Assembly: GCA_020721905.1 (NCBI GenBank)
Contig: DYLU01000001.1
Coordinates: 32,439 to 96,438, forward strand
DNA from: Leptospira biflexa
Lineage (GTDB): Bacteria; Spirochaetota; UBA4802; UB4802
DNA length: 64,000 nt
Reading direction: 5' to 3'
Every line of letters begins with the position of its first letter. Within the stretch, counting starts at the first letter, position 1. The notes beneath the pieces were generated by a model. That model had not been told where the DNA came from. It did not search any database and saw only the letters and a list, made by a program, of their open reading frames with translations. The position numbers and the translations under genes were made by a program. This document shows, in pieces, positions 225 to 51,127 of the stretch.

Positions 225-1130
225 TCACAATGTAATCATACCTTTACTTACAAACTTTTTACACTGCTCATATTCTTCATGAGTCATCCATCTGGTTAAT
301 GCTTCATCTATTTTTGCATCACTTCCAATCTTCATGCATTTCTCAGGCCATAATGGATTATACCGTAAAAGCTCAACGGTATCAACACCATGCTGGTGCA
401 AAAACTGTGCAATGCCTGTAAGATTCTTTTCCGTTGCAGTAATTCCCGGAACAAGCGGAGTGCGCACAACAACCTGAATTCCCATGCTTTGCGATAGCTG
501 TATAAGCTTTTTGAAATTTGATATTATTTTTGTATTTGAAACGCCGCAGTACTTTTTGTGGTCTTCTTCATCAATTAATTTAATATCATAATACACGGTG
601 TCACAATATGGTGCAATGCAGGTTTCAAATTCATCCCAGTTAAAATATCCGCTTGTTTCCACAAGGGTATGAATTGCATTATTTTTACATTGCTTCAATA
701 GCTCTGATGCAAATGGTATCTTCATCAAAGGCTCACCACCTGAAAGGGTCACACCGCCACCTGACGTATCAAAAAACGGCTTATCCTTTAAAACATGCTG
801 CATTATATCTTCAACAGTCAAAAGCTTGCCTACGGTACTCATAGCACCTGATGGGCACACATCAACACATCCAAAACACAGCGTGCATTTTTTTCTATCC
901 ACAAAGTTTTGATTGTGCACATCAATAGCATGTTCAGGACATACCTTTGCACAGCTCAGGCAGGCAATACATTCATTTTTATCCCAGGATAATTCAATGG
1001 CAGCTTTTTTACTTTCTGGATTATGGCACCATACACAGTTTAGAGGACAGCCTTTAAAAAACACAACTGTTCGTATACCGGGACCATCATCAAGTGAATT
1101 GCCTTTAATTTCCAGTATTAATGTTTTCAT
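225..1130 (-). CDS. Glycyl radical enzyme activating enzyme (radical SAM; two extra ferredoxin-like 4Fe-4S clusters)
   Basis: Translation has the radical SAM motif GCPLNCVWC (Cx3Cx2C) near the N-terminus plus two CxxCxxCxxxCP ferredoxin motifs (CIACLSCAKVCP, CTLCFGCVDVCP). It starts 18 nt downstream of the GRE gene on the same strand. Confidence 0.85.
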   Translation of the reverse strand: MKTLILEIKGNSLDDGPGIRTVVFFKGCPLNCVWCHNPESKKAAIELSWDKNECIACLSCAKVCPEHAIDVHNQNFVDRKKCTLCFGCVDVCPSGAMSTVGKLLTVEDIMQHVLKDKPFFDTSGGGVTLSGGEPLMKIPFASELLKQCKNNAIHTLVETSGYFNWDEFETCIAPYCDTVYYDIKLIDEEDHKKYCGVSNTKIISNFKKLIQLSQSMGIQVVVRTPLVPGITATEKNLTGIAQFLHQHGVDTVELLRYNPLWPEKCMKIGSDAKIDEALTRWMTHEEYEQCKKFVSKGMITL

Positions 1131-1148
1131 ATATTTTTTATCGTACGT

Positions 1149-4136
1149 TTATATTCCGTATTCAGCACGCTCAATGAGTTCTAATTGCATCTGACGGTTT
1201 AATGTAACAAAATATGCATTGTATCCTGAAATACGCACAATAAGGTTGCGATAGTTTTCGGGATGGGCCATTGCATCGCGCAATACTGCCGATGTAACCA
1301 CATTCATCTGCATCTGCATCCCACCCAATGTGAAATAGGTCTTCACATACGAGAACATATCATTCACGGTCTTTTCCCGTGATTCTATTGCAGAAGGCAC
1401 AACCTTAACATTAAAAGCGATATTATTGGTAAGGTTAACCGGAACCAATTTTGCAACATCCCTGATATTGTCTAACAAATTTTTTGAAGCAAACGGCTGA
1501 GGTGTTAAACCTGGTGTAAACGGTTTTCCTGCCAATCTTCCCGAAGGGAGAGCCCCGGTAAGCGTGCCAAAGGCAACATGATTTGACATTGACCAGAAGC
1601 CCGTAGTATATATACCACCACGGTAATGCGGAATGCCGGCAAAATAATCATGCGCCCATTTAGCAATCCTGTTTGCCATTGCACAGGCTTCTTCATTTCC
1701 TGAACCAAACAGCGGAACTTTTTTGTGAACGGTTTCAAGCAATACCGTATCATTTTGAAAATTACTGTCAATAGCTTTCTTTATATCAGCAAATGTGTAT
1801 TTCTTTTCGTCATATATAAGCTTTTTTATAACCATCATGGAATCAGTTACGTCAGCAAGTCCAATGATTGCAGTACCGGAGCTATTATACTTTGCCCCAC
1901 CTTCTGTTACATCCCTGCCTTTTTCTAAACAGCCTTCAATCAAGGATGAAAGTAGCGGTGTTGGCCGCAGATATTTATGAGCTTCAGCCAGCTTATTATT
2001 ATAATCAATTGACTGGTCAATAATAAAGGCAAACTGTTTGGTAAATGCATCAAAGAAATCATCAAAGGTTTTAAAAACGCCATCTTCAGGCTTTCCCGTC
2101 TTTGGTCCAATATCCAGCCGTGTCAGTGGATGATAGCCATTGTAAAGTGCCATTTCCAGAGCTGCCACCATATTCATCATCTGCATGTTGGTATGTCCAA
2201 AATGCTTATGCGAGAGTGTGGGTTCAACACAGCCTGTTGCTGACCAATCACGAATATCATTGATGTCATACCCCATTGGGGTCAGAGCCTTTATGATTGC
2301 AGCATCATTGTGCATTGATGGAGTAGCTGCGGTAATAAGGTTTACTTCACAAAGGCGTTTTAAATAGGTATCACTGTTGACACCTGGCATATAGCGGGCA
2401 TTGACGTTGGGATCACGAATGGCAAGCATCTCTGTTACTTTTAAGAAAATATACGTCATATCATTAACTGCGTCTTTGCCATCCGGTGTTACACCACCTA
2501 ATGTAATAGCCTGATCAGATGAACTTCCGCCAAAATAGAAGTTGGCTAAATCAGGAGTAAGGGGAAAATGGTCGGTGCAGCGCATATAAAAATCGGCAAC
2601 AAGTTCTATTGCCTGTTTTATATATTCTTCCCGCTTCTCTGGCGGAGTGTTTTTCATATCATTGATAAAATATGGCTGTAGCCACTGATCAAGTCTACCC
2701 AGTGAAAGACCAGCATTTAAGCTTTCGTTGTGTAGTGCAATCCAGGTAATCCACATTGCGGTCAGTGCTTCATGCAGCGTTGTGCATGGATTGGCTGGAA
2801 TACGGCTGCAAATATCAGCTATTTTCAGCAATTCCTGTTTGCGTATTAGATTCGTTTCCTGGTTACTATCGACGAGAGCCTGCTGTGAAAGATTTTTTGC
2901 ATACGCATTAATACCTTCAAGGCAGGCAATCATAGCATTAAGAAGATTTCGTTTACTCTGCGAGCAATCTTTAGTAAGCTCGGCTTTTATTTCATCAATC
3001 ATCCCTGCTGTTCCCATTGCCATCACTTTTGGAAAATCTGGAATGGTATGTGAGATAGTTGCCTGCTTCCAGTCAAAGTACAGGGCAAACCGTTCATCAA
3101 GCTGCTCACACAGGGGATTATTATATTTTTCTCTGACCCATTCCTTAAAATTGCGATGCAACCAGAATGGCAGTATTTCAAAATGTAAGACTTCACGAAT
3201 CCGGTCATCAATATCAAAAGGATTGTATGTTCTGTATGGAATGGTGAGCAATTCATTCCATATCATGATGCCGGTACTGTCAGGAAAAATGGGGCTTCCT
3301 ATGGGTTTGCTGGTGGTTGTTCCCGGCAACAGTGAATCCTTTTGTATCACGGGCTTTTTATGTTCCATCATATATTTATATGCATATGCATTGCGCAGCA
3401 CCGGCTCCCAGGGGTTGCCGTTATTGTCCTTGTCAAAGCCATGTTCCCTGTACCACTGAGTTAAATAAATTGCCCTTTCAGCACAGATAGCTGGTTTTTT
3501 AGTTAAATGGTCATTAAGAAATTTTTTGATTCGCGGGAAATCATCAAGACAATAGTGCGAAAGATACGGGTCCTCCAGAAATAAAACATTGGGTTCTTCT
3601 TTTTTTCCTTTAAGGCGCTCTTTTCGTCTTTTTGCAATCTCGTCGCTCAGTTCTTTTTGTGGTTTTGGATTTTCCTTTTTAACCTTCTTTTCATCAATCT
3701 TTCGCTCCTTTTTCATTGCACGTTTCTGAACATTATGAAAAAGCAGTGAAATAAAAAATGAGAATATATTGGAATAGGTAATACTGCCATCAATACGCAC
3801 ATCGCTCTTTAACAGCATATAAATAATATCGGTGGGTGTTCCCAGTAATAGCTTACGTGCAGCATTTTCATTTTTAAAAATCAAAATGGCATTAGCATCA
3901 GGGGCGATAGTTCCTGAAACGGTAACCCTGCCATCAATAAAAGAAATGCTGCAGACAATAGCATTGTCTTCCGTACGCAAACCAATGATAAAATTGAGAT
4001 AGCCATCTTTTGTTTTAAGGTAGCGATTGAGTGATGTGCGGTTATTAAAATTAAATGCAATGAATTTTAAAAATGATTTTATAAAAATAGAAGTGCCCAT
4101 TGTGCTGAATCTGCTCTGTGATGTGAAAAGTAACAT
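1149..4136 (-). CDS. Glycyl radical enzyme (PFL-like, Cys-x-Glu dehydratase/lyase/decarboxylase class) with an N-terminal SCP2-like domain fused through a Lys/Glu-rich linker
   Basis: C-terminal glycine-radical motif RVSGYNAYFVTL. Active-site loop is GCVEP (Cys-x-Glu). Residues ~12-135 resemble the SCP2 sterol-carrier fold (ILIFKNENAARKLLLGTPTDIIYMLLKSDVRIDGSI aligns with SCP2 [32 protein letters not shown]). The reading frame is open from the first ATG, which has a GGAGGG SD 5 nt upstream; an alternative internal Met at 3716 has no SD. Confidence 0.8.
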   Translation of the reverse strand: MLLFTSQSRFSTMGTSIFIKSFLKFIAFNFNNRTSLNRYLKTKDGYLNFIIGLRTEDNAIVCSISFIDGRVTVSGTIAPDANAILIFKNENAARKLLLGTPTDIIYMLLKSDVRIDGSITYSNIFSFFISLLFHNVQKRAMKKERKIDEKKVKKENPKPQKELSDEIAKRRKERLKGKKEEPNVLFLEDPYLSHYCLDDFPRIKKFLNDHLTKKPAICAERAIYLTQWYREHGFDKDNNGNPWEPVLRNAYAYKYMMEHKKPVIQKDSLLPGTTTSKPIGSPIFPDSTGIMIWNELLTIPYRTYNPFDIDDRIREVLHFEILPFWLHRNFKEWVREKYNNPLCEQLDERFALYFDWKQATISHTIPDFPKVMAMGTAGMIDEIKAELTKDCSQSKRNLLNAMIACLEGINAYAKNLSQQALVDSNQETNLIRKQELLKIADICSRIPANPCTTLHEALTAMWITWIALHNESLNAGLSLGRLDQWLQPYFINDMKNTPPEKREEYIKQAIELVADFYMRCTDHFPLTPDLANFYFGGSSSDQAITLGGVTPDGKDAVNDMTYIFLKVTEMLAIRDPNVNARYMPGVNSDTYLKRLCEVNLITAATPSMHNDAAIIKALTPMGYDINDIRDWSATGCVEPTLSHKHFGHTNMQMMNMVAALEMALYNGYHPLTRLDIGPKTGKPEDGVFKTFDDFFDAFTKQFAFIIDQSIDYNNKLAEAHKYLRPTPLLSSLIEGCLEKGRDVTEGGAKYNSSGTAIIGLADVTDSMMVIKKLIYDEKKYTFADIKKAIDSNFQNDTVLLETVHKKVPLFGSGNEEACAMANRIAKWAHDYFAGIPHYRGGIYTTGFWSMSNHVAFGTLTGALPSGRLAGKPFTPGLTPQPFASKNLLDNIRDVAKLVPVNLTNNIAFNVKVVPSAIESREKTVNDMFSYVKTYFTLGGMQMQMNVVTSAVLRDAMAHPENYRNLIVRISGYNAYFVTLNRQMQLELIERAEYGI

Positions 4137-4148
4137 AATGACCCTCCA

Positions 4149-4787
4149 TTATTCTATGTCCAGAGGAACATACCTATGTGAAATTACATCCACATAACTA
4201 TCGACAAAAGATTGCGGGTTATCATAAACTTCACGGATAAGCCTGCTGTTATATAAACTCACAACGCCGTTACATTCTATCCATAATTGAAGAGCGGTTA
4301 TATATGCACCATCAGGATCAAGCTCACAATGGTGCTGCAGCTTCTCTATAACAAACGCAAACGGTTTTAAGGCTATTTCCTTTTCTTTGGCGCCAACTTC
4401 TTCCAATGATGTCCCGATGCAATCCATAAACTTTGGCACATTCCTGTTTAAAAACATAACTTCATAATAATCAGGATATTGAATGCCAAATTCAATGTAT
4501 GAAGCAATCATAGATTTTATTTTATCCCTGTTAGTTGTAGCGGATGTATATGCCTTTTCAAAAAGTCCATAGAGCATTTCAAAACCACGTATGCGAATAT
4601 AAAAATACAATTCATCCTTATTTGTGTAATAGTTGTACAATGTCGTAGCAGTCACACCCAATGCAGCCCCAATCTTTCTCATGCTAAGCCTATGAAAACC
4701 TTCACTGATAACTATTTTTACCGCCGCATCAAGTATGTGCTGTTTGAAAATATCCACTTCTTCACTATTACGGGCTATACGCGGCAT
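4149..4787 (-). CDS. TetR/AcrR family transcriptional regulator
   Basis: N-terminal HTH RLSMRKIGAALGVTATTLYNYYTNKDELY is typical of TetR. Its stop lies 12 nt before the GRE start, so it is probably co-transcribed. Confidence 0.8.
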   Translation of the reverse strand: MPRIARNSEEVDIFKQHILDAAVKIVISEGFHRLSMRKIGAALGVTATTLYNYYTNKDELYFYIRIRGFEMLYGLFEKAYTSATTNRDKIKSMIASYIEFGIQYPDYYEVMFLNRNVPKFMDCIGTSLEEVGAKEKEIALKPFAFVIEKLQHHCELDPDGAYITALQLWIECNGVVSLYNSRLIREVYDNPQSFVDSYVDVISHRYVPLDIE

Positions 4788-5033
4788 TTGTTATAACTCC
4801 CCCACGCTGTTATTAATGAATCATCATTTGGTGCCTGACATGGAATCCATTGTTATACTGAAGTTGCTCCACTCCAGATTAATATTATTAAGCATTTACA
4901 AATAACACTCTGTTTACCTGCAATAAATCACTTTTCATTTATTATAATAACAATGTTAATCTAACAGTGTTAACTTTATTTGTCAATAAAAAAAAATAAA
5001 AATTTTTCAAAATTTTTATATCCTTGAGAGGAA

Positions 5034-5636
5034 ATGGAACCAGCAAAGCGACGAAGAGATATTCCTATTTTTTTGCTTCATGATATAGATCCTCAATGGG
5101 AATTGCATGAACAAAAAGCAGCACAAATACTTATTAATGAATTACAGAATGAAGGTCACAGAGTTGTTGACGTTCAGGTTACTCATCATTCATTAGAAAC
5201 AGTATTAAAATCTTACAACCCTGACGATTATATTCTCTTCAACTGGTGTGAAAGTCTGCCTGGCGATGATCATAGCGAACACATCGTCACTACGATTCTT
5301 GAAAATAAGCAATTTATATATACTGGTTCGCCTTCAGATATTCTTTTCTTTTCCTGGAATAAAGCTGCTATAAAAAAATTATTACAAATCAAAAACATTC
5401 CAACACCAGACGGTATAGTAACCTATAATTCAAAATTCAAACCTGGCACATCAGATTATGAAAATATCACGATAAAAATTCCTGCACAACTGGACAACTC
5501 CCAGTTTACACAATTGAATAAAACAGCGTTAAAAGCATATAGAGCTCTGGGCTGTCAGGATTATGCACGCATTGATATTCGTTTAAAAGATGGTACTTTC
5601 TATATTCTTGACATTAACCCTAACCCCCGACTTTAG
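5034..5636 (+). CDS. D-Ala-D-Ala ligase-like ATP-grasp protein lacking the central ATP-binding segment (possible degenerate remnant)
   Basis: The N-terminal pre-ATP-grasp region and the C-terminal motif AYRALGCQDYARIDIRLKDGTFYILDINPNP match Ddl (consensus LGCRGWARVD....EVNTxPG). About 100 residues normally found between them are absent, so the protein is 200 aa against ~300+ for Ddl. Confidence 0.5.
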   Translation: MEPAKRRRDIPIFLLHDIDPQWELHEQKAAQILINELQNEGHRVVDVQVTHHSLETVLKSYNPDDYILFNWCESLPGDDHSEHIVTTILENKQFIYTGSPSDILFFSWNKAAIKKLLQIKNIPTPDGIVTYNSKFKPGTSDYENITIKIPAQLDNSQFTQLNKTALKAYRALGCQDYARIDIRLKDGTFYILDINPNPRL

Positions 5637-5781: not shown

Positions 5782-6756
5782 TTATTGTTTTTCACAATAC
5801 CGCTTATAGGCCTCTTCTATGGCATCAAGCCACTGCTTGCGTATACCTTTGGGACTTATGACCTCAGCATATTTTCCATAGCGCAACACTTTTCCTAACA
5901 ATTCCTGAGGATGATGTACCGGCAATTGTAATTCAATATAATACCCATACTGAACATGTGAACCTTCTTTGATTTGTTGTTTGTTATGCCATATCTGCTT
6001 TCGTACAATATTGCACACAGGTTCATAAAAACGCACACAAACAATTTGACCTGTTTTCCCTTTGTAAATGCCATAGGTTGATTTAATGAACTCCTGTATT
6101 TCATTGGCAGTCAAGTGTTTGGATCGTTTTTTATTTGTATGCTCTGTTTGTATAATGCGGGACAATAAAAAAGTACGTATGCCTTTTTTATCTTCATCAT
6201 ATGCAATAACATACCATCTACCTTCATAATGTATAAAATGTTCAGGGGCGATAGTTCTTGTAGTAAGCTTCCCCTGTGCATCAGAATAGTGAATAGTAAC
6301 AACATAATCATTTCGCAGTACAGAAAACAACTTACTAAAAAGGGTCATATCTAATTCTTCCCACTCATCGATTTCGTACGTTATTTTTGAAATAAGAGGC
6401 AAGAACTGCGGTAAAATTGATCGCCTGATTATATCCGAAATACTTTTATCAACAAACGGAAAGTGTGTTGGACTGTTCATTAATTTCATTAAAAATACAT
6501 AGAACAGAAGCATTCGCTCATCACGATAGGTAAAATAATCAAACGGCAATGAGTAGCAATACCCTTTTTTATGAGGTATATACTGTATGGGGGCATTCAT
6601 TCTTTCTCTGAGATATTCAATATCACGTTTCACCGTACGTGGTGTAACCTCAAATTTACTGGCTACCTCCTGTACCGTAACTATTCCTTTTTCTCGAATG
6701 GCGGTGTCTATATACTGCAACCGTTCATTCTGGCTCAATGCAAACCTCTGCTCCAC
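5782..6756 (-). CDS. WYL-domain transcriptional regulator (wHTH-WYL-WCX architecture, PafBC/BrxR/CapW-like)
   Basis: N-terminal HTH IVTVQEVASKFEVTPRTVKRDIEYL and a central WYL motif region RWYVIAYDEDKKGIRTFLLSRI. Length 324 aa. Confidence 0.7.
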   Translation of the reverse strand: MEQRFALSQNERLQYIDTAIREKGIVTVQEVASKFEVTPRTVKRDIEYLRERMNAPIQYIPHKKGYCYSLPFDYFTYRDERMLLFYVFLMKLMNSPTHFPFVDKSISDIIRRSILPQFLPLISKITYEIDEWEELDMTLFSKLFSVLRNDYVVTIHYSDAQGKLTTRTIAPEHFIHYEGRWYVIAYDEDKKGIRTFLLSRIIQTEHTNKKRSKHLTANEIQEFIKSTYGIYKGKTGQIVCVRFYEPVCNIVRKQIWHNKQQIKEGSHVQYGYYIELQLPVHHPQELLGKVLRYGKYAEVISPKGIRKQWLDAIEEAYKRYCEKQ

Positions 6757-7024: not shown

Positions 7025-7185
7025 ATACTATAACGTGAACAGTGCTTATAAATTATTAAATGTTTATATTATATTTTATATATTCATTTGTATTTTTTGA
7101 TGTTTAAGAAAAAATTATGTTGCAATAAAAATAGCTGGTATATTTAGATATACATTCATATACTTTTTTGTGCGAGGTGTTATTG

Positions 7186-8865
7186 GTGAAACTGACAGGT
7201 GCACAGATAATTGTTGAATCGCTTATTAAAGAGAAGGTTGAAATCATGTTTGGCTATCCCGGCGGGGTGGTCATCCCCATATTTCATCATCTTTTCAATG
7301 CACCTATTAAATTTATTTTAACCAGGCATGAACAGGGTGCAGTACATGCAGCTGACGGGTACGCACGTGCAACCGGCAAGCCTGGCGTTGTTATTGCCAC
7401 ATCAGGTCCTGGCGCTACCAACCTGGTTACAGGTATTGCTACAGCCAATATGGATTCTGTTCCGCTTGTTATCTTCACCGGTCAGGTTTCAACTACAGTT
7501 ATTGGCAATGATGCATTCCAGGAAGCAGATACAACCGGAATAACACGGCCAATTACCAAGCATAATTATCTTGTCAATGATGTCAAAGACCTTGCACGCA
7601 TTATTAAAGAAGCATTCTATATTGCTACAACCGGAAGGCCGGGCCCGGTATTAATTGATGTACCGGTAAATATTTCAAATGCAGAAACTGAATATCATTA
7701 TCCCGAAACGGTCCATCTCAGAAGTTATAAACCAGTTATACACGGACATGCTGGCCAAATTCAGAAAGCATGCAAATTAATTGAGCAGTCAAAACGCCCT
7801 ATTGTATATGCCGGTGGGGGTGTTATCTCTTCCAATGCATCCGAAGAATTGCACACATTTGTTAAAAAAACTGGCATACCCATTACCACAACCTTACTTG
7901 GACAGGGAGCATATCCTGAAACCGACAGGCTTTCGCTCAAAATGTTAGGGATGCATGGAACCTACTATGCCAATCATGCAATGCACCAGTCGGACCTGGT
8001 TATAGCTGTTGGGGCACGCTTTGATGACAGAGTTACAGGGAAGATTGATGAGTTTATACCTCATGCAAAAGTTATACATATTGATATTGATCCATCATCA
8101 GTCAGTAAAAGTGTAGCAGTTGATGTGCCGATAGTTGGTGATGCAAAACATGTTCTTGCTGAAATGAACAAAATCGTTAAGGCTCCTAAAATAGATGAAT
8201 GGGTTGCCTATGTCCTTAAAATGAAAGATGAAAACCCATTAACATACAAAGACAGTGATGTAAAGATAAAACCGCAGTATGTTGTGGAAAAAATTTACGA
8301 ACTCACCAAAGGTGATGCCATTATCTGTACTGAGGTTGGGCAGAACCAGATGTGGGCATCACAGTTTTACAATTTTTCCAGGCCACGGACATTTATTTCA
8401 TCAGGAGGGCTGGGTACCATGGGATTTGGGTTTCCTGCAGCAATTGGTGCTCAATTGGGCCAACCAGGTAAACGTGTTATAGATATTGCTGGTGACGGCT
8501 CAATCCAGATGAATATACAGGAACTCATTGTTGCTGTACAGCACCGTTTACCCATAATTATCGCTATACTCAATAATGGTTTCTTAGGCATGGTACGGCA
8601 GTGGCAGCAACTCTTTTACAATAAACGTTATTCATATACCTGTATTAACTTTCAGCCTGATTTTGTTAAACTGGCCGAAGCATATGATGCCATTGGCCTT
8701 CGTATTGAAAAGAAGGCAGATGTTATACCAGCAATAGAAAAAGCTTTATCCATTACCAATAAACCTATTGTCCTGGATTTCCATGTGGACAGGGAAGAGA
8801 ATGTATACCCAATGATACCTGCCGGAAAATCGGTAAAAGATATGATGATGAGGGAATTAGCATGA
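7186..8865 (+). CDS. ilvB: Acetolactate synthase large subunit
   Basis: FGYPGG thiamine-diphosphate enzyme signature plus the GDG...N TPP-binding motif (IAGDGSIQMN) across ~560 aa. Proposed start is GTG at 7186 (SD GAGGTG 6 nt upstream); the ORF-track start at 7168 is TTG. Confidence 0.85.
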   Translation: MKLTGAQIIVESLIKEKVEIMFGYPGGVVIPIFHHLFNAPIKFILTRHEQGAVHAADGYARATGKPGVVIATSGPGATNLVTGIATANMDSVPLVIFTGQVSTTVIGNDAFQEADTTGITRPITKHNYLVNDVKDLARIIKEAFYIATTGRPGPVLIDVPVNISNAETEYHYPETVHLRSYKPVIHGHAGQIQKACKLIEQSKRPIVYAGGGVISSNASEELHTFVKKTGIPITTTLLGQGAYPETDRLSLKMLGMHGTYYANHAMHQSDLVIAVGARFDDRVTGKIDEFIPHAKVIHIDIDPSSVSKSVAVDVPIVGDAKHVLAEMNKIVKAPKIDEWVAYVLKMKDENPLTYKDSDVKIKPQYVVEKIYELTKGDAIICTEVGQNQMWASQFYNFSRPRTFISSGGLGTMGFGFPAAIGAQLGQPGKRVIDIAGDGSIQMNIQELIVAVQHRLPIIIAILNNGFLGMVRQWQQLFYNKRYSYTCINFQPDFVKLAEAYDAIGLRIEKKADVIPAIEKALSITNKPIVLDFHVDREENVYPMIPAGKSVKDMMMRELA

Positions 8866-9338
8866 GTCAACATGTAATCTCAGTTAAAGTAGAAAACAAA
8901 TTTGGTGTCCTTGCACGCGTTGCGGGTCTTTTCTCTGCTCGCGGCTACAATATTGACTCTCTTGCTGTAAGTGAAACTGAATCGCCTGATGTCTCAGTTA
9001 TGACAATTGTTGTAAGCGGTGATGACAGGATCATTGAACAGGTAAAAAAACAGCTCAACAAGCTCATCGATGTAATAAAAGTCACTGACCATAATCCTGA
9101 TAATGCCGTTCAACGCGAAATAGTTTTAGCCAGGCTTAATGTAACTCCATCAAAACGCAATGAAGTCTATCAATTAGCTCAGATATTTGGTGCACGCATA
9201 TCGGGAGTATCAAATAAAACTATTATACTGGAAATGGTTAGTAACCCAGAAACGATTGACAACTTTATTGAGCTCCTGCGTCCTTATTCCATTAAGGAAC
9301 TGATCCGCACAGGAAGGGTATCAATTTTAAAAGAATAG
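8862..9338 (+). CDS. ilvN: Acetolactate synthase small (regulatory) subunit, ACT domain
   Basis: ACT-domain N-terminus ISVKVENKFGVLARVAGLFSARGYNIDSLAV. Overlaps the ilvB stop by 4 nt (ATGA). Confidence 0.85.
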   Translation: MSQHVISVKVENKFGVLARVAGLFSARGYNIDSLAVSETESPDVSVMTIVVSGDDRIIEQVKKQLNKLIDVIKVTDHNPDNAVQREIVLARLNVTPSKRNEVYQLAQIFGARISGVSNKTIILEMVSNPETIDNFIELLRPYSIKELIRTGRVSILKE

Positions 9339-49024: not shown

Positions 49025-51127
49025 TCAGCTTATATGTGCCTGTGCATCTGTTTTATCTTCATCTAACAGTGTTACTGTATATCCACACTGTTCATTCAAA
49101 CATACAAGCATCTCGCCTTTTTTCTTTATTTTCCGTATAAAAAGCAAACTTCCGCATTTGGGACATGCGTGTTCTGATGCCTGCTCACGGGTAGCAAAAT
49201 CACACTCTGGATATCTATTACATGCATAAAATGTGCCGCGTCGCTTTGATGAGCGTTTGATTACATCGCCGCCACACTTAGGGCATTTACCAAGCGGCAA
49301 AGGTTTTGCATTGGAACATTTTGGAAACGCAGAACATGCCAGAAAGAATCCATATTTCCCTAACCGCTTGACCATTTTGCTGCCGCATTTTTCGCATACC
49401 AGATCAGTTTCTTCATCCAGTATGTTTTTCACATCTTCAATATGTTCTTCGGCGTGATGTACGGTTAACTTGAAGGGTTCGTAAAATTCCTTAATCATAC
49501 TCACCCAGTCATTATGCGCTTCTTCAATTAAATCTAATTTTTCTTCCATCTTTGCAGTAAAATCAATATTTATCAGTGATTCAAAGTATGAAACTATGAT
49601 GTCATTAACCAGCCTTCCCAAAACAGTAGGTACCAGCTGTTTACCATGTTTGGTCACATAATACCGCTTTAACAGTGTATTTATGGTTGGGGCATACGTG
49701 GAAGGCCTGCCAATACCTGATTCTTCCAGAAACTTTACCAGCGATGCTTCATTGTACCGTGGAGGTGGTGAAGTAAAATGCTGCTGGGGATCAAAAGATT
49801 CTGGAAAAAGAACCTGCCCAACTTCTAAAGGAGGCAGCACCTTCTTTTCGGCACCTTCTTCTTTTTCTATTACAGTGAAGCCATTAAACAAAATCCTGCT
49901 ACCTGTTGCCCTGAATTCAAAATTTTCAACATTCATGACAACAGTAACCACTAAAGAAACTTCCGGCGTCATTTGCGATGAAACAAACCGCTTCCATATC
50001 AATGAATACAACTTGTACTGGTCAGGTGTTAAATCGTTTTTAATTGATTCGGGATCCCTGAATACATTGGTTGGTCGTATTGCTTCATGTGCATCCTGTG
50101 CACCCTTTTTGTTTGGATAAAAATTTGGTGATTCCGGGATATACTCTTTGGAAAATTTTTTGCCAAGATAATCCCTTACTGAAGCAAGTGCAGCCGGAGC
50201 CACCCGTGTTGAATCTGTACGCATGTAGGTAATTAAACCAACCTGACCCTCACCTGATATTGTAACACCTTCATACAACTGTTGTGCCACCATCATGGTC
50301 TTACTTGCGGAAAACCCTAAACGTCTGGCAGCATCCTGCTGCAATTTGCTGGTAATGTATGGAGCCTGAGGTTTTCTTCTTCTTTCTTTATGTTCAACAT
50401 TACTTACAGTAAATGGTTTGCCTTCTACAAGGCTTAATACCCTGTCAACATCGTTCTTTGTTTTTAGCTCAATTTTATTTCCGTTTTCTGAAAAAAGCGA
50501 TGCCACAAACTCCTGCTTATGATGTTCAAACAGTGCATCAAGAGTCCAATATTCCTGCGGAATAAAATTTTCAATTTCTTTTTCTCGTTCACAGATAACC
50601 CGCAACGCAACCGACTGCACTCTTCCCGCTGACAAGCCCTTCTTAACCTTCTTCCATAATATTGGACTCAAATAGTAACCCACAAGCCTGTCCAGAATAC
50701 GTCGTGCCTGCTGTGCATTTACCAGATCCATATTAATGTCACGGGCTTTTTCAACAGCTTCTTTTATTGCTTCTTCGGTTATCTCATGAAATTCAATACG
50801 CTTTATATCCGGATTTTTTTCTTTCAAGACATTGGATAGATGCCATGATATTGCTTCACCTTCACGGTCAGGGTCAGTTGCAAGTAAAACATTGCTGGAT
50901 TGGCTTGCTTTCTTTTTTAAATCGTTTATTAACTTTGCCTTACCGCGTATAGGGATATATTCAGGCTTGAAATCATTATTCACATCAACTGCTAACCGTG
51001 ATTTGGGCAAATCAATGATATGACCCATCGACGAAGCTATGATATAGTCTTTTCCTAAATATTTATGTATTGTTTTTGCTTTTGTAGGTGACTCAACAAT
51101 CACGAGGGTTTTCTTATGATCAGCCAT
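49025..51127 (-). CDS. topA: DNA topoisomerase I
   Basis: TOPRIM N-terminus (LVIVESPTKAKTI), active-site Tyr region (GLITYMRTDS), and C-terminal C4 zinc-ribbon repeats. Confidence 0.95.
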   Translation of the reverse strand: MADHKKTLVIVESPTKAKTIHKYLGKDYIIASSMGHIIDLPKSRLAVDVNNDFKPEYIPIRGKAKLINDLKKKASQSSNVLLATDPDREGEAISWHLSNVLKEKNPDIKRIEFHEITEEAIKEAVEKARDINMDLVNAQQARRILDRLVGYYLSPILWKKVKKGLSAGRVQSVALRVICEREKEIENFIPQEYWTLDALFEHHKQEFVASLFSENGNKIELKTKNDVDRVLSLVEGKPFTVSNVEHKERRRKPQAPYITSKLQQDAARRLGFSASKTMMVAQQLYEGVTISGEGQVGLITYMRTDSTRVAPAALASVRDYLGKKFSKEYIPESPNFYPNKKGAQDAHEAIRPTNVFRDPESIKNDLTPDQYKLYSLIWKRFVSSQMTPEVSLVVTVVMNVENFEFRATGSRILFNGFTVIEKEEGAEKKVLPPLEVGQVLFPESFDPQQHFTSPPPRYNEASLVKFLEESGIGRPSTYAPTINTLLKRYYVTKHGKQLVPTVLGRLVNDIIVSYFESLINIDFTAKMEEKLDLIEEAHNDWVSMIKEFYEPFKLTVHHAEEHIEDVKNILDEETDLVCEKCGSKMVKRLGKYGFFLACSAFPKCSNAKPLPLGKCPKCGGDVIKRSSKRRGTFYACNRYPECDFATREQASEHACPKCGSLLFIRKIKKKGEMLVCLNEQCGYTVTLLDEDKTDAQAHIS

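Follow-up and report, generated by a model that had tools for sequence, protein, structure and literature searches.

A TetR-associated operon encoding a glycyl radical enzyme with an N-terminal SCP2-like domain, a candidate 1,2-eliminase of hydrophobic alcohols

Introduction

The 1,2-eliminases among the glycyl radical enzymes (GREs) are composed of dehydratases and C-N/C-S lyases and, to our knowledge, all characterised members act on small soluble molecules, namely glycerol, propanediol, choline, hydroxyproline, isethionate and sugar phosphates. In the glycerol and propanediol dehydratases (GDH and PD), His164 together with a His281/Ser282/Asp447 set binds the diol and assists the departure of the OH group. 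The trimethylammonium pocket of CutC is made up of Asp216, Phe395, Thr502 and Tyr506. The X-succinate synthases (BSS, ASS and MAS) have a Cys loop without Glu and are encoded alongside small beta/gamma subunits. Human SCP2, UbiJ and the insect and yeast SCP2 are true lipid or isoprenoid binders, and the oxygen-free breakdown of hydrophobic alcohols and membrane lipids is poorly understood. The conserved Glu is described as needed for deprotonating the substrate OH (PMC6453916), and an alpha-hydroxyalkyl radical is described as forming before elimination (PMC6386719).

Organisation of the operon

The window, i.e., the whole stretch of 64,000 nucleotides that was analysed, carries at 225-4787 on the minus strand a compact operon of three co-oriented ORFs for a TetR-family regulator, a GRE and an activase, with intergenic gaps of 12 and 18 nt. 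The host is an uncultured anaerobic spirochaete. The regulator (4149..4787, minus strand) is 212 aa long and matches PF00440 (3.6e-13) and, weakly, TetR_C_33. The activase (225..1130, minus strand; 301 aa) is a GRE-activating radical SAM enzyme that reaches 300.8 bits with TIGR02494 (cut-off 174); it has Radical_SAM, Fer4_12 and Fer4 matches, a two-cluster ferredoxin insert, and a CX3CX2C motif read as CPLNCVWC together with two ferredoxin-type cluster motifs. The ORFs and their domain matches thus confirm the TetR regulator and ferredoxin-domain activase that a preliminary description of this DNA had named as completing a three-gene module.

The GRE is a fusion protein of 995 aa (1149..4136, minus strand), described from its ORF, Pfam, NCBIfam, homologues and a full-length AF2 model. 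The Shine-Dalgarno sequence GGAGGG (4142..4147, minus strand), read from the sequence, lies 5 nt before the first ATG, the codon in front of which the preliminary description had placed it, and the homologues conserve the N-terminus from Met1 on. On the same strand, the protein comprises an SCP2-like domain (residues ~12-133; 3738..4103), a Lys/Glu/Arg-rich helical arm leading from this domain to the barrel (residues ~134-199; 3540..3737), the PFL-like ten-stranded barrel of the catalytic domain (residues 200-857; 1566..3539; PF02901, Foldseek and residue mapping), which includes the Cys loop G635-C636-V637-E638-P639 (C636 at nt 2229-2231), and the glycyl radical domain (residues 874-977; 1206..1517), with G971 at nt 1224-1226.

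Catalytic domain

The PFL-like match covers residues 202-857 (PF02901, 4.8e-163) and the Gly_radical match residues 874-977 (PF01228, 3.7e-23). The glycine motif V-R-I-S-G971-Y is invariant among 121 family members; it had been given as RVSGY and reads RISGY (968-972), a one-residue misreading without consequence, while the GCVEP Cys-x-Glu loop is present at residues 635-639 as described. C636, E638 and H363 are likewise invariant among the 121 members and align with C433, E435 and H164 of GDH; H363 also aligns with H160 of HypD, and C636 with the catalytic Cys of CutC (Cys793 in the chain numbering of 9f3w). The protein thus combines the barrel, radical domain with an R-[VI]-x-G-[YFW] motif, catalytic Cys and nearby activase of the GRE superfamily with the Glu two residues past the catalytic Cys (E638) that marks the 1,2-eliminases. 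Judged by its sequence, the catalytic domain is in the 1,2-eliminase class, with predicted roles for Cys636 as thiyl radical, Glu638 as general base and His363, and the enzyme is predicted to be an oxygen-sensitive radical enzyme.

The scores are graded in the same direction. The NCBIfam models for HypD, CutC and HpfG give 424, 409 and 376 bits, respectively, against 294 and 228 bits for decarboxylases and 117 bits for PFL, and none of the NCBIfam equivalog cut-offs is reached by this GRE. In sequence searches, the known eliminases are roughly equidistant at 354-374 bits, compared with 233 bits for MasD and 182 bits for BSS. Foldseek TM scores, normalised to target length, are 0.90-0.93 to HypD, PD, GDH and CutC at 27-30% identity.

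The pocket, mapped by pairwise HMMER alignments at about 28% identity, appears to lack the residues that give glycerol/propanediol dehydratase, CutC and HypD their specificity, and three assignments were rejected. For diol/glycerol dehydratase, H363 is present, but A475, G476 and N650 replace H281, S282 and D447 of GDH, and the score with TIGR01774 is 505 bits (cut-off 678). For CutC, the positions of D216, F395, T502 and Y506 are taken by H363, D541, T649 and M653, and TIGR04394 scores 409 bits (cut-off 1050). For HypD, A475 stands at the Asp278 position, and NF043068 scores 424 bits (cut-off 1100). The family-invariant polar residues predicted to line the pocket are K357, S538-S540, D541, Q542, H645, H648, N650 and H853.

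SCP2-like domain and helical arm

An SCP2-like N-terminal domain had been proposed from the residue pattern, and the modelled structure agrees with it: the best structural matches are human SCP2, UbiJ and the insect and yeast SCP2, and the predicted fold is the alpha/beta arrangement of that family, a five-stranded sheet covered by helices. Pfam (including PF02036) and NCBIfam searches with residues 1-195 gave no match even at E<=10, and the A1 profile found 0 matches among PDB sequences. The domain is tied to Pfam SCP2 at the sequence level because its relatives match that family; among the relatives found with the domain profile, P0234 (23.5 bits) and P0262 (22.2 bits) pass the gathering score (GA 21.3), and P0248, P0264, P0268 and P0245 have sub-threshold matches. 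The N-terminal region keeps 34-78% identity across 30 homologues, far beyond chance. Its N-terminal helix is hydrophobic with amphipathic character, and NLFFFLLSLL is a conserved motif of the final helix of the SCP2 domain.

The preliminary description had the two parts joined by a Lys/Glu-rich linker. The charge bias holds, with 59% charged residues at 136-186 (K15, E8, R5). The arm is no floppy tether; in the models it forms a long helix into which the final helix of the SCP2 domain runs without a break. Its helices span residues 119-155 and 161-169, with conserved KER, LSDE and R170. The pLDDT of the arm rises from 57-80 when modelled in isolation to 78-95 in the full-length model of the 995-aa protein, which has an overall pLDDT of 88.6 and a pTM of 0.90. 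Because of this pTM and the higher linker pLDDT in the full-length context, the SCP2 domain is, in the model, rigidly attached to the barrel by the long charged helix.

Distribution and gene neighbourhood

More than 120 full-length SCP2-GRE homologues were found. In species-representative genomes, the two parts are fused in 61 of the 61 loci carrying the N-terminal region, which belong to Spirochaetota, Smithellaceae/Syntrophales, Desulfobacterales and Acidobacteriota; the genomes behind them are all MAGs, with no cultured organism among them. The search for homologous fusions was therefore positive, and the fusion, earlier argued to be genuine from the single gene, is on this comparative evidence real and old. 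A literature search returned no paper on SCP2-GRE fusions, nor on lipid-binding domains or ether cleavage with GREs, in keeping with the earlier statement that no such fusion was known among characterised GREs.

Neighbouring genes were compared across the 61 loci; as the ORF caller is crude, many ORFs in GC-rich loci are antisense artefacts and were left out. The activase adjoins the GRE in at least 47 loci, in either order, and the TetR gene adjoins the module in 31. SDR reductases are found in the operon in 14 of the 61 loci, and the operon of the window has none. The extended SDRs have their best matches to HpnA, OleD and SdmB. The classical SDRs match (3R)-hydroxyacyl-CoA dehydrogenase best, with only generic SDR models in NCBIfam, and they may, as a lead only, resemble 3-ketosphinganine reductase. 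In one locus (L049), an A-B fused SDR directly follows the GRE. Acyl-CoA ligases occur in seven loci and a PLA1 gene in the Desulfatibacillum locus (L008), and L027 has both an FGGY kinase and a GlpD-like dehydrogenase. Clustering of the neighbours revealed no universal pathway partner, as nothing beyond TetR, activase and SDRs recurs in more than about 10 of the 61 loci. The SDRs, PLA1, acyl-CoA ligases and FGGY kinase with GlpD-like dehydrogenase give the neighbourhoods an apparent lipid flavour, which would count in favour of a hydrophobic substrate. The Spirochaetota-specific synteny with ilvBN, GFO/IDH and GMC oxidoreductase genes reflects relatedness, not function. A 537-aa protein encoded 3' of the GRE in two loci (f23 in L053 and L056) was considered as a PlsC-type acyltransferase and rejected for want of a Pfam match.

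A sister GRE clade (loci L070-L074; proteins P0262, P0380, P0232 and P0234) also combines an eliminase-type GRE, with the motifs YWTMTNHAGFG and VRVSGYTAYF, with an SCP2-like protein and an activase. It differs from the window in that the module follows the GRE or is a gene of its own, and in that some members pass the Pfam SCP2 threshold. The module is C-terminally fused in L070 (P0262) and L072 (P0380), and separate genes of ~145-165 aa are found in L071 (the GRE end, then SCP2), L073 (GRE, SCP2, activase) and L074 (SCP2, then activase); the SCP2 profile matches these sister-clade modules at 1e-12 to 1e-16. Most of the listed proteins of this clade (up to 541 aa) resemble fragments at contig ends, and the L072 copy is truncated and lies next to IS elements. 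The earlier caveat that homologues might carry the region as a separate upstream gene of an unrelated family is answered by L071, L073 and L074, whose modules are of the same SCP2-like family. The three arrangements, N-terminal fusion, C-terminal fusion and adjacent gene, constitute Rosetta-stone evidence suggesting that the SCP2-like module goes with GREs. That a GRE clade has recruited a lipid-carrier fold in three separate ways suggests a class of substrates not yet explored in radical enzymology.

TetR regulator and probable operator

The best NCBIfam similarities of the regulator are to FasR, the SACE_7040 family, FadR(Bacillus) and RutR, with KstR lower, all far below the cut-offs; its orthologue in the Desulfatibacillum locus is 28% identical over the full length. 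Upstream of the TetR gene lies a promoter-like region (4944..4986, minus strand) with TTGACA-17-TAGATT overlapping TTAACA-18-TATTAT. Each site has 10/12 matches to the consensus, and such sites are not enriched across the region (14 found against 19 expected), so the assignment is by position only. The repeat finder identified two tandem copies of the palindrome TAACANTGTTA (4948..4972; copies at 4948-4958 and 4962-4972), whose starts are 14 nt apart and which overlap the hexamers of the promoter. The window contains three matches against 0.24 expected, and 0 of 100 shuffles reach three. The third (49064-49074) was rejected as a regulon member, as it is a single copy inside the 3' end of topA and probably due to chance. 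The palindrome is present in 23 fetched loci, usually shortly 5' of the TetR gene, including loci from distant phyla (L008 of Desulfatibacillum, L017, L027, L034, L039 and L062). A TetR_N HTH domain together with a palindrome over the gene's own promoter-like site is what a TetR repressor is expected to show, and the tandem TAACANTGTTA is probably its operator. The conservation of this putative operator lends support to the TetR regulation of the operon proposed at the outset.

Proposed function

We favour, at a probability of roughly 55%, the reading that the operon encodes a new GRE subfamily, repressed by TetR, which acts on a hydrophobic alcohol by eliminating a group from its polar head, while the SCP2 domain handles the substrate or product; the hydrophobic nature of the substrate is inferred from the fold and the gene neighbours. 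The activase, a member of the radical SAM family that installs the radical, would place it on Gly971, and the GRE would then abstract H from the carbinol carbon to give a ketyl-type radical, which would expel the neighbouring group (OH, OR or amine) and leave an aldehyde or ketone. The polar head of the amphiphilic substrate would sit in the invariant polar pocket and its hydrophobic tail would be handled by the SCP2 domain, which may extract and present a lipid-like substrate or remove the hydrophobic carbonyl product. In the many genomes with an SDR reductase in the operon, this enzyme may then reduce, or supply, the carbonyl. The TetR repressor would bind the tandem TAACANTGTTA over the promoter and come off in response to the substrate or to a hydrophobic ligand related to it.

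A narrower version, put forward tentatively, holds that this GRE family is the first whose dedicated substrate is a lipid or resembles one, with SCP2 passing an amphiphilic alcohol on to a radical 1,2-eliminase. Candidate substrates would then be a glycerolipid backbone (a glycerol ether or another kind), a vicinal diol with a long chain, or an amino-alcohol of the sphingoid type; the cleavage of ether lipids is an attractive but speculative candidate reaction. If true, anaerobes not yet in culture from the Spirochaetota, Syntrophales and Desulfobacterales would gain an oxygen-independent means of C-O/C-N cleavage or remodelling in membrane lipids.

The invariant pocket residues are mostly polar, which is compatible with a small soluble substrate and counts against a hydrophobic one. 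It is nevertheless rather unlikely that the enzyme eliminates a group from, or dehydrates, a small soluble metabolite and that its SCP2-like domain, instead of carrying lipid, has a structural, oligomerisation or regulatory role (such as protecting the radical site or serving as a dock for the activase), given that the best structural matches are lipid or isoprenoid binders, that a diffusible carrier fits the three arrangements, including the free-standing one, better than a brace, and that the other characterised GREs all do without such a module.

It is less probable still that the main task of the SCP2-like domain, together with the amphipathic helix at its N-terminus, is to bring the enzyme to membranes or lipid inclusions without carrying substrate. 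The hydrophobic first helix and the conserved NLFFFLLSLL would suit such a role, as would a 172-aa apolipoprotein-like coiled-coil gene after the activase in the closest relatives, a weak match (34.7 bits, cut-off 90). However, no conserved transmembrane segment or membrane-partner gene was found, the stand-alone sister-clade versions suggest a soluble partner protein, and localisation and substrate hand-over can coexist.

X-succinate synthase-like addition of fumarate to hydrocarbons, or an arylacetate-type decarboxylation, on hydrophobic substrates would suit SCP2 and the hosts, which include hydrocarbon and fatty-acid degraders (Smithellaceae, Desulfatibacillum and a Desulfosudis oleivorans MAG), yet it is highly improbable: MasD and BSS score far under the eliminases, the decarboxylase models fall well short of HypD, Glu638 and His363 are invariant, and no beta/gamma-type small-subunit family recurs in the operons. 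That the fusion arose from faulty annotation or assembly, or that the extension is a microcompartment-targeting sequence as on some CutC/PD enzymes (N-terminal extensions do occur in GREs, e.g., the 1150-aa CutC 9f3w), is effectively refuted by the 61 independent genomes and >120 proteins with a conserved Met1 region and Shine-Dalgarno sequence, by the globular SCP2 fold of the N-terminus, and by the lack of BMC shell domains in any annotated locus.

The preferred reading, an eliminase of hydrophobic alcohols, may point to an anaerobic route by which such alcohols, or the lipids of membranes, are degraded or remodelled in digesters, in sediments and in consortia that degrade hydrocarbons. With three to four genes and a defined operator, the module is small and thus directly amenable to heterologous expression, and the operator/TetR pair is a possible biosensor for finding the ligand.

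Comparison with known systems

The GRE of the window shares with GDH (1r8w), PD (5i2g/9rco), CutC (5fau/5a0u) and HypD (6vxc) the ten-stranded barrel, the Gly radical loop and the Cys-x-Glu loop, and further has in common with known eliminases the His at the GDH H164/HypD H160 position and a ferredoxin-insert activase encoded alongside. Unlike them, it has no microcompartment or aldehyde dehydrogenase genes alongside, and its ~200-residue SCP2 domain and helical arm are found in none of the solved GREs (TMq 0.73). The second-best sequence match (367 bits, 30% identity) is PFL2 of Archaeoglobus fulgidus (2f3o), whose physiological substrate is unassigned. It has the Cys-x-Glu loop too, and a His where H363 stands, but differs in its length of 776 aa, in being without the SCP2 module, and in a pocket with EQA for NAG and ATN for SSD. 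Compared with known SCP2 domains, i.e., human SCP2, the C-terminal domain of MFE-2, UbiJ (6h6n) and the C-terminal domain of alkylsulfatase (4pdx), to which it is 6-15% identical, the copy in the window, with its putative ligand binding, is distinguished by fusion to a radical enzyme via a long charged helix.

Operon organization and distribution of the fusion

The glycyl radical enzyme (GRE) operon is composed of three tightly spaced ORFs on the minus strand at 225-4787, in agreement with the preliminary description. These encode a TetR-family regulator of 212 aa (4149..4787), the GRE of 995 aa (1149..4136), and an activase of 301 aa (225..1130), with gaps of 12 and 18 nt. The GRE has two Pfam-defined regions: a PFL-like barrel at residues 202-857 and a glycine radical domain at residues 874-977. 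The activase scores above the TIGR02494 cut-off and possesses a CX3CX2C motif together with a two-cluster ferredoxin insert. The Cys-x-Glu loop GCVEP reported before is found at residues 635-639, but the glycine motif reads RISGY (residues 968-972) instead of RVSGY, the sole residue in error. The Shine–Dalgarno sequence GGAGGG does precede the first GRE ATG, by 5 nt, and after position 13 the next Met is residue 107, within the folded domain.

The fusion of an SCP2-like domain to the N-terminus of this GRE is genuine, old, and widespread. Alignments to more than 120 homologues (990-1009 aa) cover 97-100% of the query, with identity down to 59%, and in a genome scan of one genome per GTDB species, ORF clustering found the GRE fused to the SCP2-like domain in all 61 loci. 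All 61 belong to metagenome-assembled genomes, and none of the organisms carrying the fusion is a cultured host. They comprise Spirochaetota/Leptospirales-like lineages, Smithellaceae and other Syntrophales, many Desulfobacterales (including a Desulfosudis oleivorans MAG), Thermodesulfobacteriota, and Acidobacteriota; a further homologue is present in Chloroflexi. In the Spirochaetota MAG that carries the nearest relative (93% identical), the local synteny is the same. One locus (L034) has two copies of the GRE/activase module. Furthermore, the representative-protein search returned two full-length SCP2-GRE paralogues, P0188 (1007 aa) and P0218 (984 aa), both with other residues in place of the catalytic Cys, Glu, and radical Gly; for instance, P0218 has AVAGDGGPVV in place of ATGCVEPTLS and VRSAGAG in place of VRISGYN. 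From their sequences, they look like catalytically dead pseudo-enzymes that retain the SCP2 domain.

The SCP2-like domain and its proposed helical arm

The N-terminal domain of the GRE matches no Pfam family, even at E<=10, and a profile built from 31 homologues matched zero PDB sequences. Its AlphaFold2 model (residues 1-200) has a core pLDDT of 86-93 and the order H-H-E-E-E-E-H-H-E-H. The domain-only profile, searched against 1.84 billion representative proteins, gave 276 matches, among them further full-length fusions that fall into different 50%-identity clusters (P0139, P0165, P0229, P0239, and P0269) and short stand-alone proteins, some of them recognizable as SCP2 by Pfam. Two matches, P0234 (23.5 bits) and P0262 (22.2 bits), pass the Pfam SCP2 gathering score of 21.3, and four more fall narrowly under it. 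Because of the modeled fold and these Pfam SCP2 matches among its relatives, the domain, which the first reading of the sequence had proposed to be SCP2-like, is assigned to the SCP2 fold class as a very divergent member. Another protein, P0122 (371 aa), has an SCP2-like N-terminus of this family followed, from just past the start of the charged linker, by an apparent polyprenyl-phosphate sugar transferase. Either a chimeric assembly or a fusion of a second type could account for it.

The Lys/Glu-rich linker described between the two parts is indeed 59% charged (residues 136-186), conserved at KER, LSDE, and R170, and predicted to be helical. In the full-length GRE model (pLDDT 88.6, pTM 0.90), helix 119-155 runs on directly from the last SCP2 helix, and the pLDDT of residues 131-190 is 78-95, compared with 57-80 in the fragment alone. 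The models thus suggest that the linker is a stiff helix lying against the barrel rather than a flexible tether.

A sister GRE clade with the same module

The SCP2-like module also accompanies a sister clade of GREs. In P0262 (locus L070), the end of a different GRE (…VRVSGYTAYF…) is followed by the SCP2 domain in one polypeptide, with an activase gene adjoining, and P0380 (L072) is a C-terminal SCP2 fusion of the same kind. The L072 GRE is truncated and lies beside IS21-type transposase genes. Three other loci encode the module separately, in a gene of 144-163 aa: 17 nt past the GRE stop in L071, between GRE and activase in L073, and with the activase directly next in L074. The hmmsearch with the profile of the N-terminal domain gave 7.5e-16 for L071, 1.1e-14 for L070, and 1.9e-12 for L073. 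The module thus occurs fused to either end of the GRE or encoded by a neighboring gene, which is classic Rosetta-stone evidence that it is a functional partner of eliminase-type GREs. An unrelated upstream gene in homologues had been named as evidence against the fusion; the opposite was found, as the separate genes encode the same module.

None of the 120 sister-clade GRE matches listed reaches 545 aa, including those on contigs of 20-40 kb, and most of them probably sit at contig ends. Downstream in L073 are a 137-aa membrane protein, a 574-aa protein without a Pfam match, and a multihaem cytochrome.

The catalytic domain

The GRE is roughly equidistant in sequence from several solved GREs: choline TMA-lyase (CutC, 374 bits), A. 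fulgidus PFL2 (367 bits), glycerol dehydratase (GDH, 361-362 bits), propanediol dehydratase (357 bits), and hydroxyproline dehydratase (HypD, 354-359 bits). Fold comparison to solved GREs gave TM-scores of 0.90-0.93 at 27-30% identity. It reaches none of the NCBIfam equivalog cut-offs, scoring well below them, and scores best to eliminases, above decarboxylases, X-succinate synthases, and PFL.

Residues were mapped by pairwise alignments, with conservation taken over 121 family members. The catalytic pair C636 and E638 is invariant. H363, equivalent to GDH H164 and HypD H160 (D216 in CutC), is also invariant, as are W356, K357, S362, S538-S540, Q542, H609, H645, H648, T649, F847, M850, S851, and H853 on active-site segments. 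The role of the Glu in eliminases and the alpha-hydroxyalkyl-radical/elimination mechanism have been described (PMC6453916, PMC6386719). Because C636, E638, and H363 are invariant, the radical-generating and OH-activating apparatus of the eliminases is intact. By contrast, none of the known substrate specificities, mapped against GDH, HypD, and CutC, has its defining residues here: A475/G476 stand at GDH H281/S282 and HypD D278, N650 at GDH D447, D541 at CutC F395, M653 at CutC Y506, and W848 at GDH Y640. On this account, the alignments place the GRE in a separate subfamily.

Regulation and gene neighborhood

The palindrome TAACANTGTTA occurs twice upstream of the TetR gene (4948-4958 and 4962-4972), both copies overlapping a promoter-like TTGACA-17-TAGATT; the window contains three copies vs. 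0.24 expected by chance. Among the fetched loci, 23 have this palindrome, in many cases in tandem copies and as a rule 20-150 nt ahead of the TetR gene. Desulfatibacillum and further Desulfobacterales are among them, with a TetR that shares only 28% identity with that of the window. The TetR gene adjoins the module in 31 of the 61 loci, a set in which many loci are truncated. Owing to this conserved palindrome and adjacency, the TetR regulation suggested earlier is well supported, through a predicted operator. The third exact copy, TAACAGTGTTA (49064-49074), is single, lies inside the 3' end of the topoisomerase I gene, just upstream of a xerC-like recombinase gene, and is probably due to chance.

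The activase (in either order) and TetR are the only constant partners of the GRE. The next commonest are in-operon SDR-type oxidoreductases (14 loci). Desulfobacterales have an extended SDR of 327-349 aa between activase and GRE, with best NCBIfam similarities, all under cut-off, to HpnA, OleD (2-alkyl-3-oxoalkanoate reductase), and the sterol demethylase protein SdmB. Spirochaetota and Smithellaceae have a classical SDR of ~280 aa after the activase, with (3R)-hydroxyacyl-CoA dehydrogenase as best PDB match, and the Desulfosudis oleivorans MAG has both types fused (614 aa) directly after the GRE. Acyl-CoA ligases neighbor the GRE in seven loci and in the Chloroflexi locus, which also has UbiA with a B12-radical SAM enzyme. 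Desulfatibacillum has genes for an outer-membrane phospholipase A1 and for an SDR nearby, and one Spirochaetes operon includes an FGGY kinase with a GlpD-type glycerol-3-phosphate dehydrogenase. Microcompartment shell and aldehyde dehydrogenase genes were found in none of the examined loci.

In the closest relatives, the activase is followed by a 172-aa protein (L001 14129-14647, just beyond window position 1) with weak apolipoprotein A1/A4/E-like amphipathic repeats (34.7 bits vs. a cut-off of 90), which may be a further lipid-related hint or a mere coiled coil. On the other side, a 200-aa D-Ala-D-Ala-ligase-like ATP-grasp ORF (5034-5636, plus strand) lacks residues ~139-225 and the last ~44 of the 342-aa orthologue in L001, the 93%-identical relative, and is probably a decayed gene. 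A WYL-domain regulator (HTH_11-WYL-WCX; 5782-6756, minus strand) lies beside an acetolactate synthase ilvB/ilvN pair (7168-9338, plus strand), a synteny common to related Spirochaetota MAGs with no evident link to the GRE operon.

Proposed function and relation to known systems

The system combines a GRE that has all the catalytic residues of an eliminase with a cognate activase, a permanently associated SCP2-fold module, and a conserved predicted operator. The in-operon SDRs fit an eliminase yielding a carbonyl product. Their resemblance to lipid-associated enzymes leans towards a hydrophobic substrate, as do the SCP2 fold and the weak FasR/FadR/KstR-like similarity of the TetR, none being decisive; the main rival, a small soluble substrate with the SCP2 fold in a structural or regulatory role, is considered unlikely. 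The preferred reading, an eliminase acting on an amphiphilic substrate, is given a probability of about 0.55 as a whole. The activase would generate the radical at Gly971, to be relayed to Cys636, which would abstract H from the carbinol carbon while Glu638 and His363 hold the OH. Loss of the vicinal group from the ketyl-type radical would leave an aldehyde or ketone that the SDRs would then reduce. The polar head of the substrate would occupy the polar family-specific pocket and its tail would be accommodated by the SCP2 domain, which may take the substrate from a membrane or micelle or carry off a hydrophobic product. The TetR would sense the substrate or a related lipid.

Both the GRE superfamily and the SCP2 fold are well known. 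No description of their combination was found in the literature, and fold comparison revealed no solved GRE with an SCP2-like module, in keeping with the earlier statement that no such fusion is known among characterized GREs. Compared with these known systems, the operon encodes a GRE of a new subfamily, whose accessory domain is also new and whose substrate is probably hydrophobic.
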